This document shows, one piece after another, positions 52,784 through 61,381 of a DNA stretch of 64,000 nucleotides. The stretch spans positions 1 through 64,000 of the forward strand of contig CAVTBR010000001.1 in NCBI GenBank assembly GCA_963733055.1, given 5' to 3'. The translations under genes were made by a program, and so were the position numbers. The notes beneath the pieces were generated by a model. It saw only the letters and a program-made list of their open reading frames with translations. It was not told the origin of the DNA and did not search any database. This stretch comes from Candidatus Bathyarchaeota archaeon (GTDB taxonomy: Archaea; Thermoproteota; Bathyarchaeia; 40CM-2-53-6). Positions within the stretch are counted from its first letter, which is position 1. The number at the start of each line of letters is the position of its first letter.

Positions 52784-53929
52784 CTAAACGCGTTGAAACT
52801 GATCCTTTGTTACAGTTTCTTTCGAAATTGTCTTCGATTCAAGAAATTCTTCATCCACTTGAACTCCTATTCCAGGTTCACGCGGCACCTCAATCGTTCC
52901 AGCCCCCGTTAGTTCGAACTCTTGTTTGATTATGTCTTTCTCGAAATACAGTTTGCTTGCGGAAATGTCACCAGGAAAGGTGAAGCCTGGCAGGGAAGCC
53001 AATGCGACATTAAATGCTCTGCCAATTCCGGTTTCAAGCATTCCGCCGCACCATACTGGAATCTTCCGTGCCATGCAAAAATCGTGCAGCTCTCTCGAAC
53101 ACCCCAAGCCTCTAACCCGTCCTGGTTTGATGTTTATGACTCTGCACGCATCGATCTCTACCGCTTGACGCACGTCGTTCACACTTCGTATGCTCTCGTC
53201 AAGACAAACGGGTGTTGAAAGCTGCTTCTGCAATTTCGAATGATCAATGAGATCGTTAGGGGCTAGGGGCTGCTCAATCAGTAACAGTTTGAAGCCGTCA
53301 AGCTGTTTCAATATATGCGAATCCTCAAGAGTATAGGCCGAGTTCGCGTCCACTTGGAGTGGAATATCAGGGAAACGTTTCCTAATCGCCCTCACTGGTT
53401 CGAGATCGAACCCTGGTTTAATTTTGATTTTTATCCGCCTGTATCTCTCGGCAAGACGCGATGTGACCTTGTCGACGAGGCTCTGGATTGAAGGTTGAAT
53501 ACCTACACTTACTCCAGCTTCAACCTCCGTCTTACTTCCTTTGAGTAGCTTGGAAATTGGTTGGTGTGTTAACTTTCCCATGAGATCCCAGAGTGCCATT
53601 TCGACCGCGGCTACGGCCATATTGTTTCCTCTTAATCTTCGACTGGAATCAAGAAACTGGGCGGGAGTCGTGAATAGGTTTGCAAAAAGTGATGGCGCAA
53701 GGAATTTCTTGATGACGTAGCTGGCAGACATTATGGTCTCTTCGCTATACCAAGGCCCATTTCCAGCAACACATTCTCCGTAAGCAGTAAGCCCGTCCTT
53801 TTTGACGATCACAATCAGAGCCTCCTTAACGGATTCTACGCCAAGATTGCTCTCGAAATTGGAAACGAGCGGTAATCGGACAATGCGCAATTCCAGGGAA
53901 TCGATAGGCGTCAGTTCAGGAGAATCCAT
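52784..53929 (-). CDS. menC: o-Succinylbenzoate synthase (NSAR/OSBS-type enolase)
   Basis: KIKIKPG, VDANSAY, EQP, LDES, NIKPGR, WCGGMLETGIGRA. Confidence 0.88.
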   Translation of the reverse strand: MDSPELTPIDSLELRIVRLPLVSNFESNLGVESVKEALIVIVKKDGLTAYGECVAGNGPWYSEETIMSASYVIKKFLAPSLFANLFTTPAQFLDSSRRLRGNNMAVAAVEMALWDLMGKLTHQPISKLLKGSKTEVEAGVSVGIQPSIQSLVDKVTSRLAERYRRIKIKIKPGFDLEPVRAIRKRFPDIPLQVDANSAYTLEDSHILKQLDGFKLLLIEQPLAPNDLIDHSKLQKQLSTPVCLDESIRSVNDVRQAVEIDACRVINIKPGRVRGLGCSRELHDFCMARKIPVWCGGMLETGIGRAFNVALASLPGFTFPGDISASKLYFEKDIIKQEFELTGAGTIEVPREPGIGVQVDEEFLESKTISKETVTKDQFQRV

Positions 53930-54161
53930 CTTCCCAGCTACCTCGCATCTGAATGAGATTCCTCGTGATTCTAATAGGCCCCGCGACGGTCTGGCTCAAT
54001 GCAACGCATATGTCCCATCTAATTGCAGTCCTCCTTTTATCAAGAATACCGTGCCCATCTCGCAATTAGCCGGAGGAGCTTAGAATTAGGATAGGTTCTT
54101 CTGTCTGAGAAATCATGAGCAACAACGCCGCCATCGGGAAGAGAGAAGCGGGAGAGGCAAG

Positions 54162-55613
54162 ATGCGAAGAAGATCTTTAGAAATTCAGTCCCAAAACAGT
54201 GAGATGGCGGGCTTACCTCAACCTTCCGATTCGATTTCATTCGGCAGAGTACTTGAGTTGATTTCGGATGGAAATCGATGCGCCGCTGAAATGAGCAGAC
54301 CGATACTTGTATCCCTCACCCAGCCTCTTAGACTCGAAAACGATCCTGAACAACTCTTCTCCGCGGCATCGCGAATTGACAGTACTAGGAACTACTGGGC
54401 CCTACCTGCGAAGAAATCTTGGAGTGTGGGCGCCGGTAAGGCGGCTGACATAGTCGCTGAGGGCTCTCAAAGATTCCAACGAGCCGCTACCTCACTTCTG
54501 GATACGATGAATTCGGCGATTGTTGAGGAAAACGGCGGTCCCGGACCAATTTTCATGGGGGGCTTCAGGTTCAACCCACTATCACCTGTTGAAGGGCTTT
54601 GGGAGGATTTTCACGATGGACTGCTGACACTGCCCCGGTGGGTGATTACATCTCAACCGAACGGGCGACGCTGGGTGACCATCAATGTGGTTGTGAATGG
54701 ACGCACGAAGATTGATTCGCTACAAAAGGATCTGAAGACTCAAGCCGCCGACCTCTTCGATTCGCCCAGTGACTTCCCGGAACCTGTGTCTGCTTCAATA
54801 AGATCTCAACCGGCTGTTGATCTTTGGCGACGAAGTGTGGAACAGGCTCTGGACGCAGTCAAAGACGGAAGACTGACCAAAGTCACTTTGGCGAGAATCC
54901 TAAAACTCCGCGCTAGGACACCCATAATTCCCGAGATTGTCCTTCGAAGCCTCGCAACCAATTACCCCGAATGTCAAGTATTCGCCTTCTGCCGGTCGGG
55001 TACATGTTTCGTAGGAGCTTCCCCCGAGGATTTAGTGAGCCTTCACGATGAGCAGGTGAGTTCGACCTGTTTGGCGGGTTCAGCCCCCCGCGGCGCTTCG
55101 GAGACCGAGGACTCGAAGCTTTCGGAGTGGCTGTTAGGAAATGTTAAGGAACGAAGAGAACACGAAGTCGTCGTCGACTGGATTTCTGAACGAATGGGAA
55201 AGCTCTGCTCTAAACTTCAGTGGGACGACGACCCCCATTTGATGCGGCTAGGGAACGTTCAGCATTTAGCGACCCGTTTTACGGGCAAGCCAAAGAAAGG
55301 CGTCAATGTCCTGGATTTTGTCAATGCGTTACACCCAACGCCCGCCGTTGGTGGCATACCTCTTGAGCCAGCCCTTGAAATGATTGAGAGGCTTGAGAAG
55401 TTTGATCGCGGTTGGTATACGGGACCGGTTGGATGGGTTGACAGGAATGGGGACGGGGAATTCGCCATCGCAATTCGATGTGCGCTCTTGCGTGGCAATG
55501 AGGCGTTCCTGTACGCAGGGGCCGGTATTGTTGCCGGATCGGACCCAGACCGCGAAGATCAGGAGACTATGATCAAATTCAAGCCACTCCTGACGGCCCT
55601 GGGAGTGCCTTGA
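54162..55613 (+). CDS. menF: Isochorismate synthase
   Basis: KVTLAR, GASPE, LAGS, KERREH, LHPTPAVGG, YAGAGIV.GS. Confidence 0.9.
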   Translation: MRRRSLEIQSQNSEMAGLPQPSDSISFGRVLELISDGNRCAAEMSRPILVSLTQPLRLENDPEQLFSAASRIDSTRNYWALPAKKSWSVGAGKAADIVAEGSQRFQRAATSLLDTMNSAIVEENGGPGPIFMGGFRFNPLSPVEGLWEDFHDGLLTLPRWVITSQPNGRRWVTINVVVNGRTKIDSLQKDLKTQAADLFDSPSDFPEPVSASIRSQPAVDLWRRSVEQALDAVKDGRLTKVTLARILKLRARTPIIPEIVLRSLATNYPECQVFAFCRSGTCFVGASPEDLVSLHDEQVSSTCLAGSAPRGASETEDSKLSEWLLGNVKERREHEVVVDWISERMGKLCSKLQWDDDPHLMRLGNVQHLATRFTGKPKKGVNVLDFVNALHPTPAVGGIPLEPALEMIERLEKFDRGWYTGPVGWVDRNGDGEFAIAIRCALLRGNEAFLYAGAGIVAGSDPDREDQETMIKFKPLLTALGVP

Positions 55614-57403
55614 TGCCTCTCCCACCGAATCGCAACTACGCTTTCTCAGAAGCATTTGTTGATGAACTCTACCGTTCAGGCCTGCGACATGCCTGCATCT
55701 GTCCAGGTTCGCGATCAACACCCTTAGTGATTAGCCTAGCGAAGCAAGAGCGTATCAAGGTCTGGGTCCATTCGGACGAGCGTTCGGCTGCGTACTTCTC
55801 GCTTGGGATGAGCCGGGCCCTTAGCGCGCCAGTCGCGGTCGTTAGCACGTCGGGTACAGCTGCGGCTAATTTCTTTCCCGCCGTAATCGAGGCTTACTAT
55901 TCACATGTGCCAATCTTGATTTTGACCGCGGATCGTCCCCCAGAGTTGTGGGAATGGGGTGCGAACCAAACAATCGACCAGACTCGGATGTATGGAGGCC
56001 ACGCGAAGTGGTCGGTGAACATGGCTACTCCAGAGTTCACGCTTGACTTGCTGAGGTATGTTCGTGAAATTGCGTGCCGCGCATTGAGCACGGCGATTCA
56101 ATCGCCCGCTGGGCCCGTGCACATCAACTTCCCGTTCGGAGAGCCATTAGTACCCAAGGATGTTCCAGCGGAAATCCCAGAACACTCCTCGCTGGGAACC
56201 CAAAACGCTTGGGAAGGTCGGAAGCAAGCCAGAGCCTACACAGACGTCCGGAATGGGCGGCGATTTATCAACAGAGAGCAGGTCAAGGAGTTAGCGGGAG
56301 AGATACAGACCCTGAGCGAGGGGGTTATCGTTTGTGGGTCTCAGTATGATTTAGGCTTCCCCCAAGCGGTCTCGACTCTAGCCAACCGCTTGGGCTTCCC
56401 AATACTCGCAGACCCCCTATCCCAAGTTCGGTGCGGTACGCACGACCGAAGCCTCATCGTTGATTGCTACGACGCTTTCCTACGCTCTAGGAGAGTGGCG
56501 GAGGCATTGGAACCTGAAATTATCCTGCGGTTCGGCGCCACGCCCACGTCCAAGGCATTACAAGAATACATTGAGCAACACCACCGGGCCAGGCAAATAC
56601 TAGTCCGAGAGGGAGACTGGCAAGACCCAATGCATACGGCCACCGACATGTTTCAGACCGACCCCGGCCAATTCGCAAGAGAACTTGCAACTGAGACCAC
56701 CAGTACTCGCCAAAGAAAGTGGTCGGACACTTGGTTGGCTGTCGCTGAGAGAACACGTCAAGCTATTCATGGCGAGATGAGCAAAATCGAAGAGATGTTT
56801 GAAGGGAAGATTTTCGCGAACCTAGCGGCTTTCTTTCCACCCAAAGCAACATTGTTTGCGGGCAACAGTATGCCGGTGCGTGACCTTGACTCATTCTATC
56901 CGTCCACTTCTCAGGAGGTCCGATTTTTGGCGAATCGAGGAGCGAGCGGAATAGATGGAGTAATCTCCACAGCGCTAGGAGCCAGCGCGGTTACCAAGGA
57001 TCCAACGGTGCTCGTGGTCGGCGATCTTTCTTTCTACCAAGACATGAATGGTTTGCTGGCGGCGATGAAATACGGTCTCAATGCAACTATCGTGTTAGCA
57101 AATAATGATGGCGGCGGCATTTTCTCCTTTCTTCCTCAGCGAGAGTACAAGGACTACTTCGAAAAGTACTTCGCGACCCCACACGGCCTTACCTTCCGCG
57201 CCGCGGCCTCCCTATACGGTCTAACCTATTCCAAGGCTACGTCGTGGGAAGAATTCCATACCGCCGTTTCGCGGAACGTGGGATCCACGGGCACGGGCGT
57301 AGTGGAATTGCAAACTAATAGAGATCGAAACGTTGAGCTTCACCGTCGCATTTGGTCAGTTGCAACCGAGGCGGCGGAGGGCACGCTCATGGAGCGGACT
57401 TGA
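55610..57403 (+). CDS. menD: SEPHCHC synthase
   Basis: CPGSRSTPL, DERSA, TSGTA, ADRPPE, NRGASGIDG, GDLSF, NNDGGGIF. Confidence 0.95.
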   Translation: MMPLPPNRNYAFSEAFVDELYRSGLRHACICPGSRSTPLVISLAKQERIKVWVHSDERSAAYFSLGMSRALSAPVAVVSTSGTAAANFFPAVIEAYYSHVPILILTADRPPELWEWGANQTIDQTRMYGGHAKWSVNMATPEFTLDLLRYVREIACRALSTAIQSPAGPVHINFPFGEPLVPKDVPAEIPEHSSLGTQNAWEGRKQARAYTDVRNGRRFINREQVKELAGEIQTLSEGVIVCGSQYDLGFPQAVSTLANRLGFPILADPLSQVRCGTHDRSLIVDCYDAFLRSRRVAEALEPEIILRFGATPTSKALQEYIEQHHRARQILVREGDWQDPMHTATDMFQTDPGQFARELATETTSTRQRKWSDTWLAVAERTRQAIHGEMSKIEEMFEGKIFANLAAFFPPKATLFAGNSMPVRDLDSFYPSTSQEVRFLANRGASGIDGVISTALGASAVTKDPTVLVVGDLSFYQDMNGLLAAMKYGLNATIVLANNDGGGIFSFLPQREYKDYFEKYFATPHGLTFRAAASLYGLTYSKATSWEEFHTAVSRNVGSTGTGVVELQTNRDRNVELHRRIWSVATEAAEGTLMERT

Positions 57404-57407
57404 AGGC

Positions 57408-58217
57408 GTGCTGGTCGACGAAGTCAATCTAAATGTCAAGGCTGTGGGTTCGGGTCCAGCAATCTTAGCACTTCACGGATTCTCAGGGTCTATGTCCACC
57501 TGGAGCGAGTTCGTGGAGGAGGCGCAGAAAGAATACAGGATTATTACAGTCGACTTGTTAGGGCATGGAGGTTCAGATGCTCCCAGCGATCCCAAGAGAT
57601 ATCGTGTGGAACAATCCATCGCCGACCTTGCTGCGGTTCTAGACAAGTCAGATGTCGCCAATGCTTGCTGGTTAGGGTATTCTATGGGGGGCCGGATCGC
57701 TCTCGGAGCCGCTGCGTTAATGCCTGAAAGGTGTGGGTGTTTAGTGCTTGAAGGAGCTTCCCCCGGGATTGACGAACCCAAACAAAGGGCAGAGAGGAAG
57801 AGACGCGATGACGCGCTGGCACGCCTGATTATGAAAGAAGGCATCGAGACGTTTTCGAAATACTGGGAGCAACAGCCAATATTTGCCAGCCAAAAACTTC
57901 TCCCCCTTGAAGTTCAAGAACAAATCAGAAACCAGCGGCTCAAAAACAACCCTACAGGGCTCGCGAACACTTTACGCGCCGCAAGCTCCGGCGTCCAGCC
58001 CCCCTTCCACAAATCACTTCCTAACATCAAAATCCCCGTCCTCTGCATTGCTGGCGAATACGACCACAAGTTCTCTGCCATCGCAGAAGACATGTGCAGC
58101 AAGCTACCAAACGGGCACCTTTCCATCATACCAGGTGCGGGACATGCTCCGCACATTGAGAAGCCTGAGGAATTCAACAGAATCGTACTGGGCTTCCTCC
58201 GTGAATCGAATTGGTAG
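57408..58217 (+). CDS. menH: SHCHC synthase
   Basis: LHGFSG, DLLGHG, GYSMGGR, D.KF, GHAPH; start uncertain (GTG 57408). Confidence 0.9.
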   Translation: MLVDEVNLNVKAVGSGPAILALHGFSGSMSTWSEFVEEAQKEYRIITVDLLGHGGSDAPSDPKRYRVEQSIADLAAVLDKSDVANACWLGYSMGGRIALGAAALMPERCGCLVLEGASPGIDEPKQRAERKRRDDALARLIMKEGIETFSKYWEQQPIFASQKLLPLEVQEQIRNQRLKNNPTGLANTLRAASSGVQPPFHKSLPNIKIPVLCIAGEYDHKFSAIAEDMCSKLPNGHLSIIPGAGHAPHIEKPEEFNRIVLGFLRESNW

Positions 58218-58290
58218 TTATTACGTCATCCTTGGCTCAGTAACTGGTTCACCACAGAGTATAATTTCGCTGGCTTCAATCTCTTGCCTC

Positions 58291-59517
58291 ATGATTAGCC
58301 GAAAGTCTTCCAGGGACAATCCTAGACTGAATCCATTAGCCGGGATAACCGTCCTAGAAATAAGCCACATACTCTCTGGCCCGTTCTGCACCATGCTTCT
58401 TGCAGATCTTGGCGCGAAGGTTATCAAAGTTGAGCGGCCGAACTTGGGAGATGAAGCGCGACGATTAGGTCCCCAAGTGAGCGGAGATAGCGCGTATTTC
58501 ATGAGCGTAAATCGAGGAAAGAAGAGCATCACTATCGATCTTTCCCGCGAGGAGGGCCAGAAGTTGGCCCGGGAACTGTGCCAGCACGTTGACATTCTTG
58601 TCGAGAACTTTGTTCCTGGGACAATGCAGAGATTCGGTCTCGACTATGCGAAGGTAGGGGCGCTCAATCCTCGTCTGATCTACACATCGATCTCAGGCTT
58701 CGGCCAAAGCGGTCCCTATACCCACCATCCCGCCCTGGATATTATTGTTCAAGCGATGGGCGGCATTATGAGCGTGACGGGTGAACCCAATGGCCGTCCC
58801 TTGCGGCCCGGGGCATCGCTCGGAGATAGCGTCGCCGGCCTCTTCGCTGCGTTAGCAATACTCAGCGCTCTGTTGGAGAGAGAACGCACGGGCCGGGGGC
58901 GATATGTCGACGTCTCGATGCTAGACTGTCAAGTCACTATGATGGAGAACGCGTTTTCAAGGTACTTTGCCACGGGTGAGGTACCGGGACCGCTGGGATC
59001 ACGCCACCCTGCCGCAGTTCCCTTCCAGTCGTTTGCGACACAGGACGGATACATAGTGGTTGCACTAATCTCCGACAGCCCCGAACCCTGGAACCGCTTC
59101 TGTACCGCGATCGGGCACCCTGACCTTGCGAAAGACCCTCGTTTTGTTGACGCACCATCTAGAGTTCAGAACTACGGCGTGCTCGCGCCTATGATCGAAG
59201 AGGCGATGCGCAGGAAGTCTTCGCGAGAATGGCTTGAAGAATTCTCGCGCCTTGAAATTCCGTGCGGCCCGGTAAACAATGTGGGCGCAGTAGCTAAGGA
59301 CCCTCAGATACTCTCCCGCGGTATGATCGCAAAGATACCCCACAAAAAGTTGGGCGAATGGAAGGTCGCCAATACTCCCTTCAAGGCGGACGGTGCCTCC
59401 TCAGGCCCACAAGGTCCTTCGCCAGACTTAGGTGAGCATACCGACGAAGTGCTTCAAGAAATGCTCGGCCGTTCCCAGAATGAGATTGCCCGCTTGAGAT
59501 CGCTCGGCTTGGTTTGA
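58291..59517 (+). CDS. Family III (CaiB/BaiF) CoA-transferase
   Basis: PLAGI.VLE, GP.C...LADLGA.VIKVE, NRGKKSI.IDL, ENF.PG, SISGFGQ.GP, catalytic Asp in SLGDSVAG, P.LGEHT. Confidence 0.92.
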   Translation: MISRKSSRDNPRLNPLAGITVLEISHILSGPFCTMLLADLGAKVIKVERPNLGDEARRLGPQVSGDSAYFMSVNRGKKSITIDLSREEGQKLARELCQHVDILVENFVPGTMQRFGLDYAKVGALNPRLIYTSISGFGQSGPYTHHPALDIIVQAMGGIMSVTGEPNGRPLRPGASLGDSVAGLFAALAILSALLERERTGRGRYVDVSMLDCQVTMMENAFSRYFATGEVPGPLGSRHPAAVPFQSFATQDGYIVVALISDSPEPWNRFCTAIGHPDLAKDPRFVDAPSRVQNYGVLAPMIEEAMRRKSSREWLEEFSRLEIPCGPVNNVGAVAKDPQILSRGMIAKIPHKKLGEWKVANTPFKADGASSGPQGPSPDLGEHTDEVLQEMLGRSQNEIARLRSLGLV

Positions 59518-59573
59518 AAACGACCCTCTTAAGAAGCAAGCGCTGAGTAAAACTAGGAAAGTGGATATTCCAA

Positions 59574-60371
59574 ATGGAATTCAAAGACATATTTTACGAA
59601 AAGAAGGAAGGGGTAGCTTTCGTTCGAATTAACCGCCCGAAGGTTCTCAACGCCTTTCGACCGTTGACGATAGATGAGATGCGGCAGGCTTTCGTAGACG
59701 CTTGGTACGATCCGGAAGTTGGAGTTGTTGTTCTCACAGGGACAAACGGTAACTTTTGTTCAGGCGGTGATGTGAACGTTCGGGGAGAGGGTGGTTATGA
59801 GGACGATTCGGGCACGCTGAGGCTGCAAGTTACGCATCTGCACAGGTTGATACGAGAAATACCGAAGCCCGTCATCGCAATGGTGGATGGTTACGCGATC
59901 GGCGGGGGACATGTCCTTCATGTGTTATGTGACTTGACGGTTGCCTCCACGCGTGCAGTCTTCGGACAGATAGGGCCTAAGTACGGTAGCTTCGACGGAG
60001 GATTCGGGTCCATTTACCTCGCGCGCATTGTTGGGGAAAAGAAGGCACGAGAGATCTGGTACCTATGCCGTCGTTACTCTGCCCAAGAAGCACTAGACAT
60101 GGGACTCGTCAACTTTGTCTTCCCTCCGGATCAACTCGAGAACGAGGTGGTGTCTATGGCTCAGGAACTGCTCCAGCGCTCACCGACTGCTTTGCGATTT
60201 CTGAAGTTTGCCTTCAACTCAGACACGGACCACGTCTACGGGACACAGAATCTAGCACACGGCGCTACAGCCCTTTACTACGCGAGTGAGGAATGCAAGG
60301 AGGGCACGAGAGCCTTCCTTGAGAAACGCGCGCCAAACTACGCTCGCTTTCGAAAGCAACCTCCTTGGTAG
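59574..60371 (+). CDS. menB: DHNA-CoA synthase
   Basis: NRP.VLNAFRP, FCSGGD, GYAIGGGHVLH, GSFDGG.G, EKKAREIWYLC. Confidence 0.95.
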   Translation: MEFKDIFYEKKEGVAFVRINRPKVLNAFRPLTIDEMRQAFVDAWYDPEVGVVVLTGTNGNFCSGGDVNVRGEGGYEDDSGTLRLQVTHLHRLIREIPKPVIAMVDGYAIGGGHVLHVLCDLTVASTRAVFGQIGPKYGSFDGGFGSIYLARIVGEKKAREIWYLCRRYSAQEALDMGLVNFVFPPDQLENEVVSMAQELLQRSPTALRFLKFAFNSDTDHVYGTQNLAHGATALYYASEECKEGTRAFLEKRAPNYARFRKQPPW

Positions 60372-60427
60372 ATAATCACCCCACCAGCCCGACATCATGA
60401 ATTCAAAACGCAGTACGCGTTTCATAA

Positions 60428-61381
60428 TTGAGACGGGATCTGGCCGTGCAGCAGAGAAGCAACAGGCACTCATTAGCCGTCTGGTACGTTGCGCTTAGGC
60501 CATTTACCTATCCGGCGTCAATCGTCCCCGTGCTTGTGGGTTCTGCCGTGGCTTGGTATAGGGGACACACGGATTTGGTTCTCTTTCTGCTCACCCTGTT
60601 CGGGTCCGTAGCGGTGCAGGCGGGAACGAACTTAGCCAACGAATATTTTGACTATGTGCAGGGAGTTGATAGAGCGGACTCTTTGGGTCCCGCCGGCGTA
60701 ATTCTTGGAGGAAAACTCAGACCAAGGCAAGTGCTCTGTGCAGCAATAGTGGCTTTTGGTTGTGGTACGATCGCTGGTGTGTATATAGCCGCGCAAGTTG
60801 GATGGATCATCCTAGTTCTCGGAGTAACGAGCGTTCTGGCAGCCTGGTTCTACACTGCGAAACCTCTCTCGCTGGGTTACAGGGGCCTTGGGGAGCTGGA
60901 GGTTTTCGTATTTATGGGTCCCGTCACGGTTCTCGCGAGCTATTACGTTCAAGCCAGAAGCCTCGCCTGGAGCCCCCTGCTGCTCTCTCTCCCCGTAGCT
61001 CTTCTAGTAACCGCCATTCTTCACGCTAACAACCTGCGAGACATTGTGCAAGACAACGAGCGACATCGAATTACTTGGGCAGTGCTGGCGTGTAGATCTT
61101 GGGGTATGGAGCGAGGCAGGATTTTTTCCCGTTTCGTCTATTGCGCGATGCTGGCGGGAGCCTATATGATCTTAACTGGACTTGTTGCGACACATGCCGC
61201 CCCTCTACCGACGCTCTTGACGTTCCTTACGATCCCGCAAGCATATTGGCTCATTCGGTTTGTGGCTTCGGGAGTCGAAGGCAAGGCACTCAGCCGCGCT
61301 GTTCGAGGCACGGCACGCCTCCAGATGTCATTTGGCGTGACATTGACTGTTGGGTACTTACTTGCTATGTTGATGCGCTAA
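60428..61381 (+). CDS. menA: DHNA prenyltransferase
   Basis: RP.T.PASIVP, NLANEYFDY..GVD, GYRGLGE, ANNLRD. Confidence 0.9.
   Translation: MRRDLAVQQRSNRHSLAVWYVALRPFTYPASIVPVLVGSAVAWYRGHTDLVLFLLTLFGSVAVQAGTNLANEYFDYVQGVDRADSLGPAGVILGGKLRPRQVLCAAIVAFGCGTIAGVYIAAQVGWIILVLGVTSVLAAWFYTAKPLSLGYRGLGELEVFVFMGPVTVLASYYVQARSLAWSPLLLSLPVALLVTAILHANNLRDIVQDNERHRITWAVLACRSWGMERGRIFSRFVYCAMLAGAYMILTGLVATHAAPLPTLLTFLTIPQAYWLIRFVASGVEGKALSRAVRGTARLQMSFGVTLTVGYLLAMLMR

Follow-up and report, generated by a model that had tools for sequence, protein, structure and literature searches.

A family III CoA-transferase within a menaquinone gene cluster lacking a recognisable menE: a candidate acyl-CoA:o-succinylbenzoate CoA-transferase

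The menaquinone gene cluster and its CoA-transferase

The stretch of DNA analysed here (the window) covers the initial 64 kb of a 1.57-Mb contig from a Candidatus Bathyarchaeota assembly of 2.88 Mb (three contigs, 96% complete), and it carries a menaquinone (men) gene cluster in which a gene for a family III (CaiB/BaiF) coenzyme A (CoA)-transferase is embedded. Listing of open reading frames (ORFs) and family scans revealed a row of six co-directional genes, menF-menD-menH-[family III CoA-transferase]-menB-menA, and a divergent menC separated from menF by a 232-nt spacer (Table 1). The row looks like one operon, because the distances between successive genes from menF through menA are only -4, about 4, 73, 56 and 56 nt. 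MenF, MenD, MenH, MenC, MenB and MenA each score above the curated NCBIfam cut-off, and this menD is the only MenD match in the genome. No ANL-family ligase (PF00501) and no 4HBT hotdog protein (PF03061) was found in the window, all matches of the genome to these two families lying elsewhere, and a tRNA scan of the window found none. The genes at 34.9-51.9 kb, encoding MFS transporters, UDG, aldo-keto reductase, M24 peptidase and nitroreductase, are unrelated to quinones. An initial annotation, made from the sequence alone, had described this gene order between positions 52784 and 61381, a cluster free of ANL ligase and hotdog thioesterase, and a transferase that keeps the family's Asp in the string SLGDSVAG. 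Order and coordinates were reproduced exactly, both enzyme families are indeed confined to the rest of the genome, and the string is present, its Asp being residue 179.

The longest ORF covering the transferase reaches back into menH (57883-59517, 544 aa), but the true start codon is the ATG at 58291, giving a protein of 408 aa. This protein matches the PF02515 profile over its full length (positions 1-366 of 366, 429.2 bits) and reaches no curated cut-off among the NCBIfam equivalogs. The top model was succinate--glutarate CoA-transferase (NF052585, 341.3 bits against a cut-off of 750), followed by YfdE (oxalate; 307.5 < 522), mesaconate CoA-transferase (Mct; 300.5 < 700) and the Frc type (286.5 < 504), while the CaiB model gave only 123 bits for a cut-off of 413. 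The nearest solved relatives are the succinate--glutarate (hydroxymethylglutarate) CoA-transferase SUGCT (E 8e-86), YfdE, Frc-like enzymes and the benzylsuccinate CoA-transferase BbsEF, with PDB entries 9br7 (E 8e-86) and 4hl6 (E 5e-83) as matches within the SUGCT/YfdE/Frc group. In the alignment Asp179 coincides with the Asp of human SUGCT, and at least 97% of 156 homologues share it; we take this position to be the catalytic Asp that forms the acyl-anhydride and CoA-thioester intermediates of family III.

Conserved linkage and the distribution of MenE

Among the 80 genome loci most similar to the transferase, eight have men neighbours, all of them within the 10 most similar (57-76% identity), and none of the remaining 72 has any. 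The order in the eight is menF-menD-menH-(menC)-transferase-menB-menA; one is from a Bathyarchaeia metagenome-assembled genome (MAG; L015, 76% identity) and the others are from Dehalococcoidia/SAR202-type MAGs (L016-L021 and L023, 58-65%). Three further men-linked carriers (G010, G052 and G115) were present in a 301-genome sample of the bacterial class. Of 80 metagenome loci compared likewise, the 15 with at least 57% identity include 12 with men genes beside the transferase and three cut at or inside the gene, and the 65 more distant ones have no men neighbours; this set is partly redundant, with L157 identical to L165, and L161 and L162 apparently one sequence deposited twice. Small variations in the clusters were also seen. 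The metagenome locus L160 has a PNPOx-like (FMN-binding split-barrel) gene of 141 aa (2267-2692) between the transferase and menB, and in bacterial clusters a TetR-family regulator gene stands 5' of menF (L017 4206-4835; also L016 and L018-L020), where the window has the divergent menC.

Phylogenetic analysis (IQ-TREE, 55 rows) placed the men-linked transferases in one clade with an SH-aLRT support of 100 and a stem of 0.56. Eighteen of its 19 rows are men-linked, with the transferase between menH/menC and menB, and the clade spans Bathyarchaeia-like and Dehalococcoidia/SAR202-like contigs. All seven paralogues of 55-58% identity that have no men context fall outside it, and a FastTree tree of 104 rows agrees on the men clade. 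The clade also has residues of its own: Ser180 is found in 18 of 18 men-clade members and in none of 138 paralogues, 81% of which have Ile there, and Ala242, Trp357, Phe364 and Pro373 are likewise clade-specific. Only Ser180, which adjoins Asp179, can be safely placed at the active site.

The window's genome is archaeal, as indicated by the presence of ribosomal protein S8e, and the nearest homologues of the transferase carry the label Bathyarchaeia. Its isochorismate men pathway looks otherwise whole and looks to be its only menaquinone route: a MenG/UbiE-like methyltransferase is encoded elsewhere with a borderline score (157.6 bits, cut-off 158.35), and the 96%-complete genome contains no match to the MqnA/MqnD family (PF02621) of the futalosine route at E <= 0.001. 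Only three ANL loci (PF00501) are present, and no MenE over cut-off was found in this 96%-complete genome, the best match to TIGR01923 being 232.7 bits against 330.15. The three loci read as FadD-like, Acs-like and acetoacetyl-CoA-synthetase-like (Table 1), the last being split over two overlapping frames by a frameshift or an assembly error.

The same holds for the other carriers. None of the 12 genomes with a men-linked transferase (the window's genome, eight further carriers, and G010, G052 and G115, in the last of which a contig end truncates MenB) has a MenE over cut-off. In the two complete carrier chromosomes the best MenE-model matches reach only 136-142 bits, and G003 and G006 have a single ANL match each, of about 135 bits. 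In G004 the top match is a genuine acetate-CoA ligase (882 bits), alongside a single other ANL of 837 aa (218 bits). Across the bacterial class, MenB exceeds its cut-off in 94 of the 301 genomes and MenE in 35, 34 of which are within the 94 (G252 enters only these class denominators); wherever both genes share one contig in a MenB-positive class genome, MenE lies within about 3 kb of menB, at a distance of 2-3 kb in the MenE-type clusters. No transferase match of at least 57% identity was found in the 34 genomes with both MenE and MenB. MenE over cut-off is thus seen in 0 of 12 carriers and in 34 of 91 others (Fisher p = 0.008), a crude contrast that ignores kinship and is indicative only. The initial annotation had called for a genome-wide search for MenE and for a test of whether this transferase recurs inside men clusters and is anticorrelated with menE and menI. 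No ANL of the window's genome passed the MenE cut-off, the recurrence extends across two domains, and the contrast just given points to an anticorrelation with MenE.

We also compared 40 MenB neighbourhoods in the bacterial class. Five were MenE-positive controls, picked as such, and one had a divergent MenE adjoining menB; 17 were menB-menA pairs only, four had a long-type MenB, and two were full clusters with neither enzyme nearby. The remaining 11, from closely related Dehalococcoidia-class genomes, had a full menF-D-H-(C)-B-A cluster, no MenE, and another family III transferase upstream of TPR-TetR-menF. This different transferase (L095-L102 and L126-L128; e.g., L095 2114-3376) is 33% identical to the window's. 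It was not counted as support, given the close kinship of the 11 clusters and the 59-74 first-look candidates per genome, with which its position could be due to chance. In 14 of 20 tested MenB-positive, MenE-negative genomes (G243, G295, G092, G163, G266, G240, G211, G305, G196, G111, G292, G180, G030 and G226), a menB-menA pair was present and no MenD, which suggests salvage of o-succinylbenzoate (OSB) or another precursor rather than de novo synthesis.

Two further arrangements deserve mention. In G119, an 816-aa frame with tandem PF02515 domains (L129 7170-9620; two stretches, 522 bits) lies immediately 5' of a long-type menB (~9866), and the menF-D-H-A-C cluster of this genome (L138) is without menE; the fused tandem may be a second, independent CoA-transferase solution in the form of a fused pseudo-dimer. 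In G229, genes for a PHP-associated protein, a FAS1_DH/MaoC-like hotdog pair and a 4HBT thioesterase (L147 636-2742) lie directly 5' of menB-menA, where MenB is 83% identical to the window's MenB, and similar genes are present in L106 (about 12.7-14.3 kb) and L165 (about 5.0-5.9 kb).

Table 1. Features of the men cluster, its downstream neighbours and the ANL loci of the same genome
Feature	Position	Strand	Basis
menC, OSB synthase	52784-53929	-	TIGR01928 347.7 bits > 200.65; MR_MLE_N, MR_MLE_C
menF, isochorismate synthase	54162-55613	+	TIGR00543 332.2 > 224.75; PF00425
menD, SEPHCHC synthase	55610-57403	+	TIGR00173 492.5 > 244.2
menH, SHCHC synthase	ORF 57333-58217, likely GTG start 57408	+	TIGR03695 263.3 > 208.55
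Family III (CaiB/BaiF) CoA-transferase, candidate acyl-CoA:OSB CoA-transferase	58291-59517	+	PF02515
Codons of Asp179 (58825-58827) and Ser180	58825-58830	+	Alignment, residue conservation
menB, 1,4-dihydroxy-2-naphthoyl-CoA (DHNA-CoA) synthase	59574-60371	+	NF005637 392.1 > 380; TIGR01929 365.6 > 342.7
menA, DHNA polyprenyltransferase	60428-61381	+	TIGR00751 159.2 > 102.15; PF01040
ADP-forming acyl-CoA-synthetase homologue, 888 aa, C-terminal GNAT	61613-64279 (past window end, 64000)		ORF, family scan
Two Zn-type alcohol dehydrogenase genes	C1:64928-66932		After the 888-aa synthetase homologue
FadD-like ANL, 549 aa	C1:693.9-695.6 kb		TIGR01923 232.7 bits; best models are long-chain fatty-acid ligases
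Acs-like ANL	Adjoining the 549-aa FadD-like gene		ANL family match
Acetoacetyl-CoA-synthetase-like ANL	C1:278215-280214	-	Two overlapping frames, 279 aa and 420 aa

Activation of o-succinylbenzoate and release of DHNA

Because these menE-less operons have just one conserved additional gene, encoding a CoA-transferase close to the dicarboxylate transferases, we favour the view that this enzyme replaces MenE as an acyl-CoA:OSB CoA-transferase, with succinyl-CoA as the first and acetyl-CoA as the second candidate donor and with DHNA-CoA hydrolysed by a hotdog thioesterase; we put the probability of this reading as a whole at roughly one half (0.52). The enzyme would take CoA off an existing thioester and load it on the aliphatic carboxyl group of OSB, using the Asp179 anhydride/thioester mechanism of its family, to give OSB-CoA, the substrate of MenB. 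The donor would be a central acyl-CoA, most likely succinyl-CoA and then acetyl-CoA; succinyl-CoA synthetase (SucC) is present in the window's genome. A hotdog thioesterase encoded elsewhere in that genome would hydrolyse DHNA-CoA and thereby pull the otherwise reversible CoA transfer forward, and activation of OSB would cost one thioester in place of the conversion of ATP to AMP and PPi. Observed are the gene content of the cluster and its conserved linkage, a transferase that forms a clade of its own and keeps its catalytic Asp, and genomes in which no MenE is recognisable; from these features we infer the substrate, donor and direction of the transferase. Since men clusters retain it as a dedicated component and its carriers have no recognisable MenE, it most likely supplies OSB-CoA, as judged from gene context.

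Several points weigh against this assignment. Its support is genomic context throughout. The carriers are related and two sampling frames were mixed, so the contrast of 0/12 with 34/91 overstates the independence of the genomes. The TIGR01923 cut-off is strict: it is passed in only four of 14 control genomes, whereas MenB and MenD pass theirs in seven. Divergent MenEs can escape the model, a genome scoring below it may still have one, and OSB could be activated by the 549-aa FadD-like ligase. Moreover, MenE over cut-off is missing from 60 of the 94 MenB-positive genomes, and just three of the 60 (plus G115) carry this transferase; the complete menF-D-H-B-A clusters L106 and L114 have neither MenE nor the transferase nearby. 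With so many menE-less men sets that are without this transferase, other solutions or blind spots exist. Finally, one member of the clade, L030, is not beside men genes; its genome has a menB-menA pair elsewhere, with no MenD found and no MenE over cut-off.

The initial annotation had gone further and proposed that a single enzyme catalyses DHNA-CoA + OSB -> DHNA + OSB-CoA, replacing both MenE and MenI. In such a closed loop neither ATP nor a net thioester would be spent, succinyl-CoA would serve only as primer, and the thioesterase of some clusters would be a bleed or proofreading valve; if true, this would be an energy-minimal menaquinone pathway suiting energy-starved subsurface Dehalococcoidia and Bathyarchaeia. 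It draws on the same linkage and the same absence of MenE as the assignment favoured above, product-to-substrate recycling of CoA is the usual logic of CaiB, FldA, HadA and BaiF, and the L030 genome, with menB-menA and no MenD found, fits any OSB-activating role. Nor does the window contain a hotdog gene, and the same is true of L015 and L159, the nearest archaeal loci, and of L019 and L021.

However, a YbgC/4HBT thioesterase gene (139-147 aa) follows menA by about 10 nt in L017, L018, L020 and L023, that is, in four of the eight bacterial clusters with sequence beyond menA (L017-L021, L023, L161 and L165), three of the four being close kin, and such an enzyme would drain the cycle. The gene, which spans 12965-13384 in L017, encodes a protein of the YbgC/FadM type (TIGR00051 60-71 bits; Pfam 4HBT_2 and 4HBT), with a weak match to the Staphylococcus MenI. 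A thioesterase within the operon fits a pathway that still hydrolyses DHNA-CoA and fits a closed loop poorly. The window's genome also keeps a homologue of this protein (C1:1347671-1348111; 31-33% identity, E 3e-17 to 3e-19) among its four hotdog genes, all outside the window, of which one is YbgC/4HBT-like, one PaaI/EntH-like and two YciA-like. The MenI search that the initial annotation had called for thus gave a divided answer: hotdog homologues are present, and none passes the MenI model (NF047424, 34 bits < 225). By sequence, both known types of MenI have putative candidates in the genome; little can be concluded from a cluster that has no hotdog gene, and hydrolysis of DHNA-CoA seems to have been kept.

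Furthermore, the transferase scores 341 bits with its closest kin, dicarboxylate transferases that use succinyl-, acetyl- or formyl-CoA, and only 123 bits with CaiB; an aryl thioester and an aliphatic carboxylate would both have to fit a single acyl pocket; and a strict 1:1 cycle needs a primer and survives no leak. We therefore consider the closed loop unlikely. The part of the earlier proposal that concerns MenE is supported by the linkage and the missing MenE; the replacement of MenI is not supported and fits poorly with the in-cluster thioesterase and the genome's hotdog genes, and DHNA-CoA as donor is disfavoured by that thioesterase and by the donors of the nearest relatives.

It is also conceivable, but quite unlikely, that the transferase is a passenger or acts on another acid, and that OSB is activated by a non-canonical ANL such as the 549-aa FadD-like protein or the 837-aa ANL in G004/G008. 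Family III paralogues are abundant in these bacteria (up to 186 first-look candidates per genome) and chance adjacency is common, a FadD-like ANL scoring 270-300 bits against the MenE model is present in about 200 of the 301 class genomes, and the many menE-less men sets that are without this transferase point the same way. Nevertheless, that FadD-like ANL occurs irrespective of MenB, G003 and G006 have only their single weak ANL match, and neither chance nor a passenger role explains a slot between menH/menC and menB that 18 of 19 members of a distinct clade have kept across two domains.

A role at the exit only, in which CoA would pass from DHNA-CoA to succinate or acetate so that the thioester is conserved and MenI replaced while OSB is activated otherwise, agrees with the transfer to succinate typical of the nearest relatives and with the lack of a hotdog gene in the window; it leaves the missing MenE unexplained, would be redundant with the in-cluster thioesterase of L017, L018, L020 and L023, and is improbable. 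The adjoining ADP-forming acyl-CoA-synthetase homologue was rejected as a MenE substitute and is scarcely credible as an OSB-CoA synthetase: it borders the men genes here and in L015 and L159 (80-82% identity) and has the phosphohistidine-type string SHTGA, but in the latter two loci it is found at the opposite end of the men block, none of the bacterial clusters with the men-linked transferase has it, its C-terminal GNAT domain is one that we liken to that of the Pat protein acetyltransferases, and it forms a unit with two Zn-alcohol dehydrogenase genes in both arrangements, which argues for shared ancestry of the insertion site rather than shared function.

Origin of the cluster and comparison with known systems

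The block formed by this synthetase-GNAT gene and the two alcohol dehydrogenase genes lies, inverted, on the opposite side of the men block in L015 and L159, and the men genes look like a cassette inserted or inverted beside it. A MenB match at E <= 1e-90 was found in none of the 200 other genomes sampled from the window's class; the men cluster is an uncommon acquisition among these archaea. Within an otherwise Chloroflexota clade of the IQ-TREE tree, the archaeal transferases make up a small subclade, and the window's MenB is 72-83% identical to bacterial MenBs. Taken together with the flipped neighbour block, these data suggest that the cluster reached the archaeal lineage by transfer from Chloroflexota, as a cassette.

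Activation of OSB by MenE is seen as obligatory in the classical menaquinone pathway, and MenE is a drug target in bacteria. If the assignment favoured here is true, an ATP-independent, non-homologous replacement of MenE fills an annotation gap, energy-limited anaerobes have a cheaper route to their respiratory quinone, and a whole quinone operon has moved from Chloroflexota into an archaeal lineage in whose sampled relatives MenB was not found. Calls on the completeness of the men pathway in Dehalococcoidia, SAR202 and some Bathyarchaeia are probably wrong, as 60 of the 94 MenB-positive genomes are without MenE over cut-off. No published description of an OSB CoA-transferase was found in full-text literature, a search that left supplementary files and subscription journals outside, in line with the initial annotation, which was not aware of such a variant; we rate the proposed novelty as a non-orthologous replacement of MenE within a known pathway. 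Among public sequencing runs, one soil DNA run contained 0.30 of the query words and no RNA run was listed.

The closest known enzymes by sequence, SUGCT, YfdE and Frc, resemble the men-linked transferase in their full-length domain and in the position of the catalytic Asp. Nevertheless, the transferase is under all of their cut-offs, belongs to a clade of its own and has the signature S180/A242/W357/F364/P373, and we know of no description of a men operon context for these enzymes. BbsEF also belongs to family III and uses succinyl-CoA to activate a succinate-type acid with an aryl substituent. It is a distant homologue (9fn0, E 1e-47 and 6e-41); it consists of two subunits and is catabolic, whereas the window's transferase is encoded by a single gene in a biosynthetic operon. 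CaiB, FldA, HadA, BaiF and BaiK belong to the same protein family, although the CaiB match is weak. Their logic, in which CoA passes from the product of a pathway onto the incoming substrate, is that of the initial annotation, while a thioesterase is kept in related men clusters. MenE itself shares with the transferase the proposed product, OSB-CoA for MenB, but it has the ANL fold and proceeds through an adenylate at the expense of ATP, whereas the transferase has an unrelated fold and would pass CoA on through an Asp-bound intermediate.

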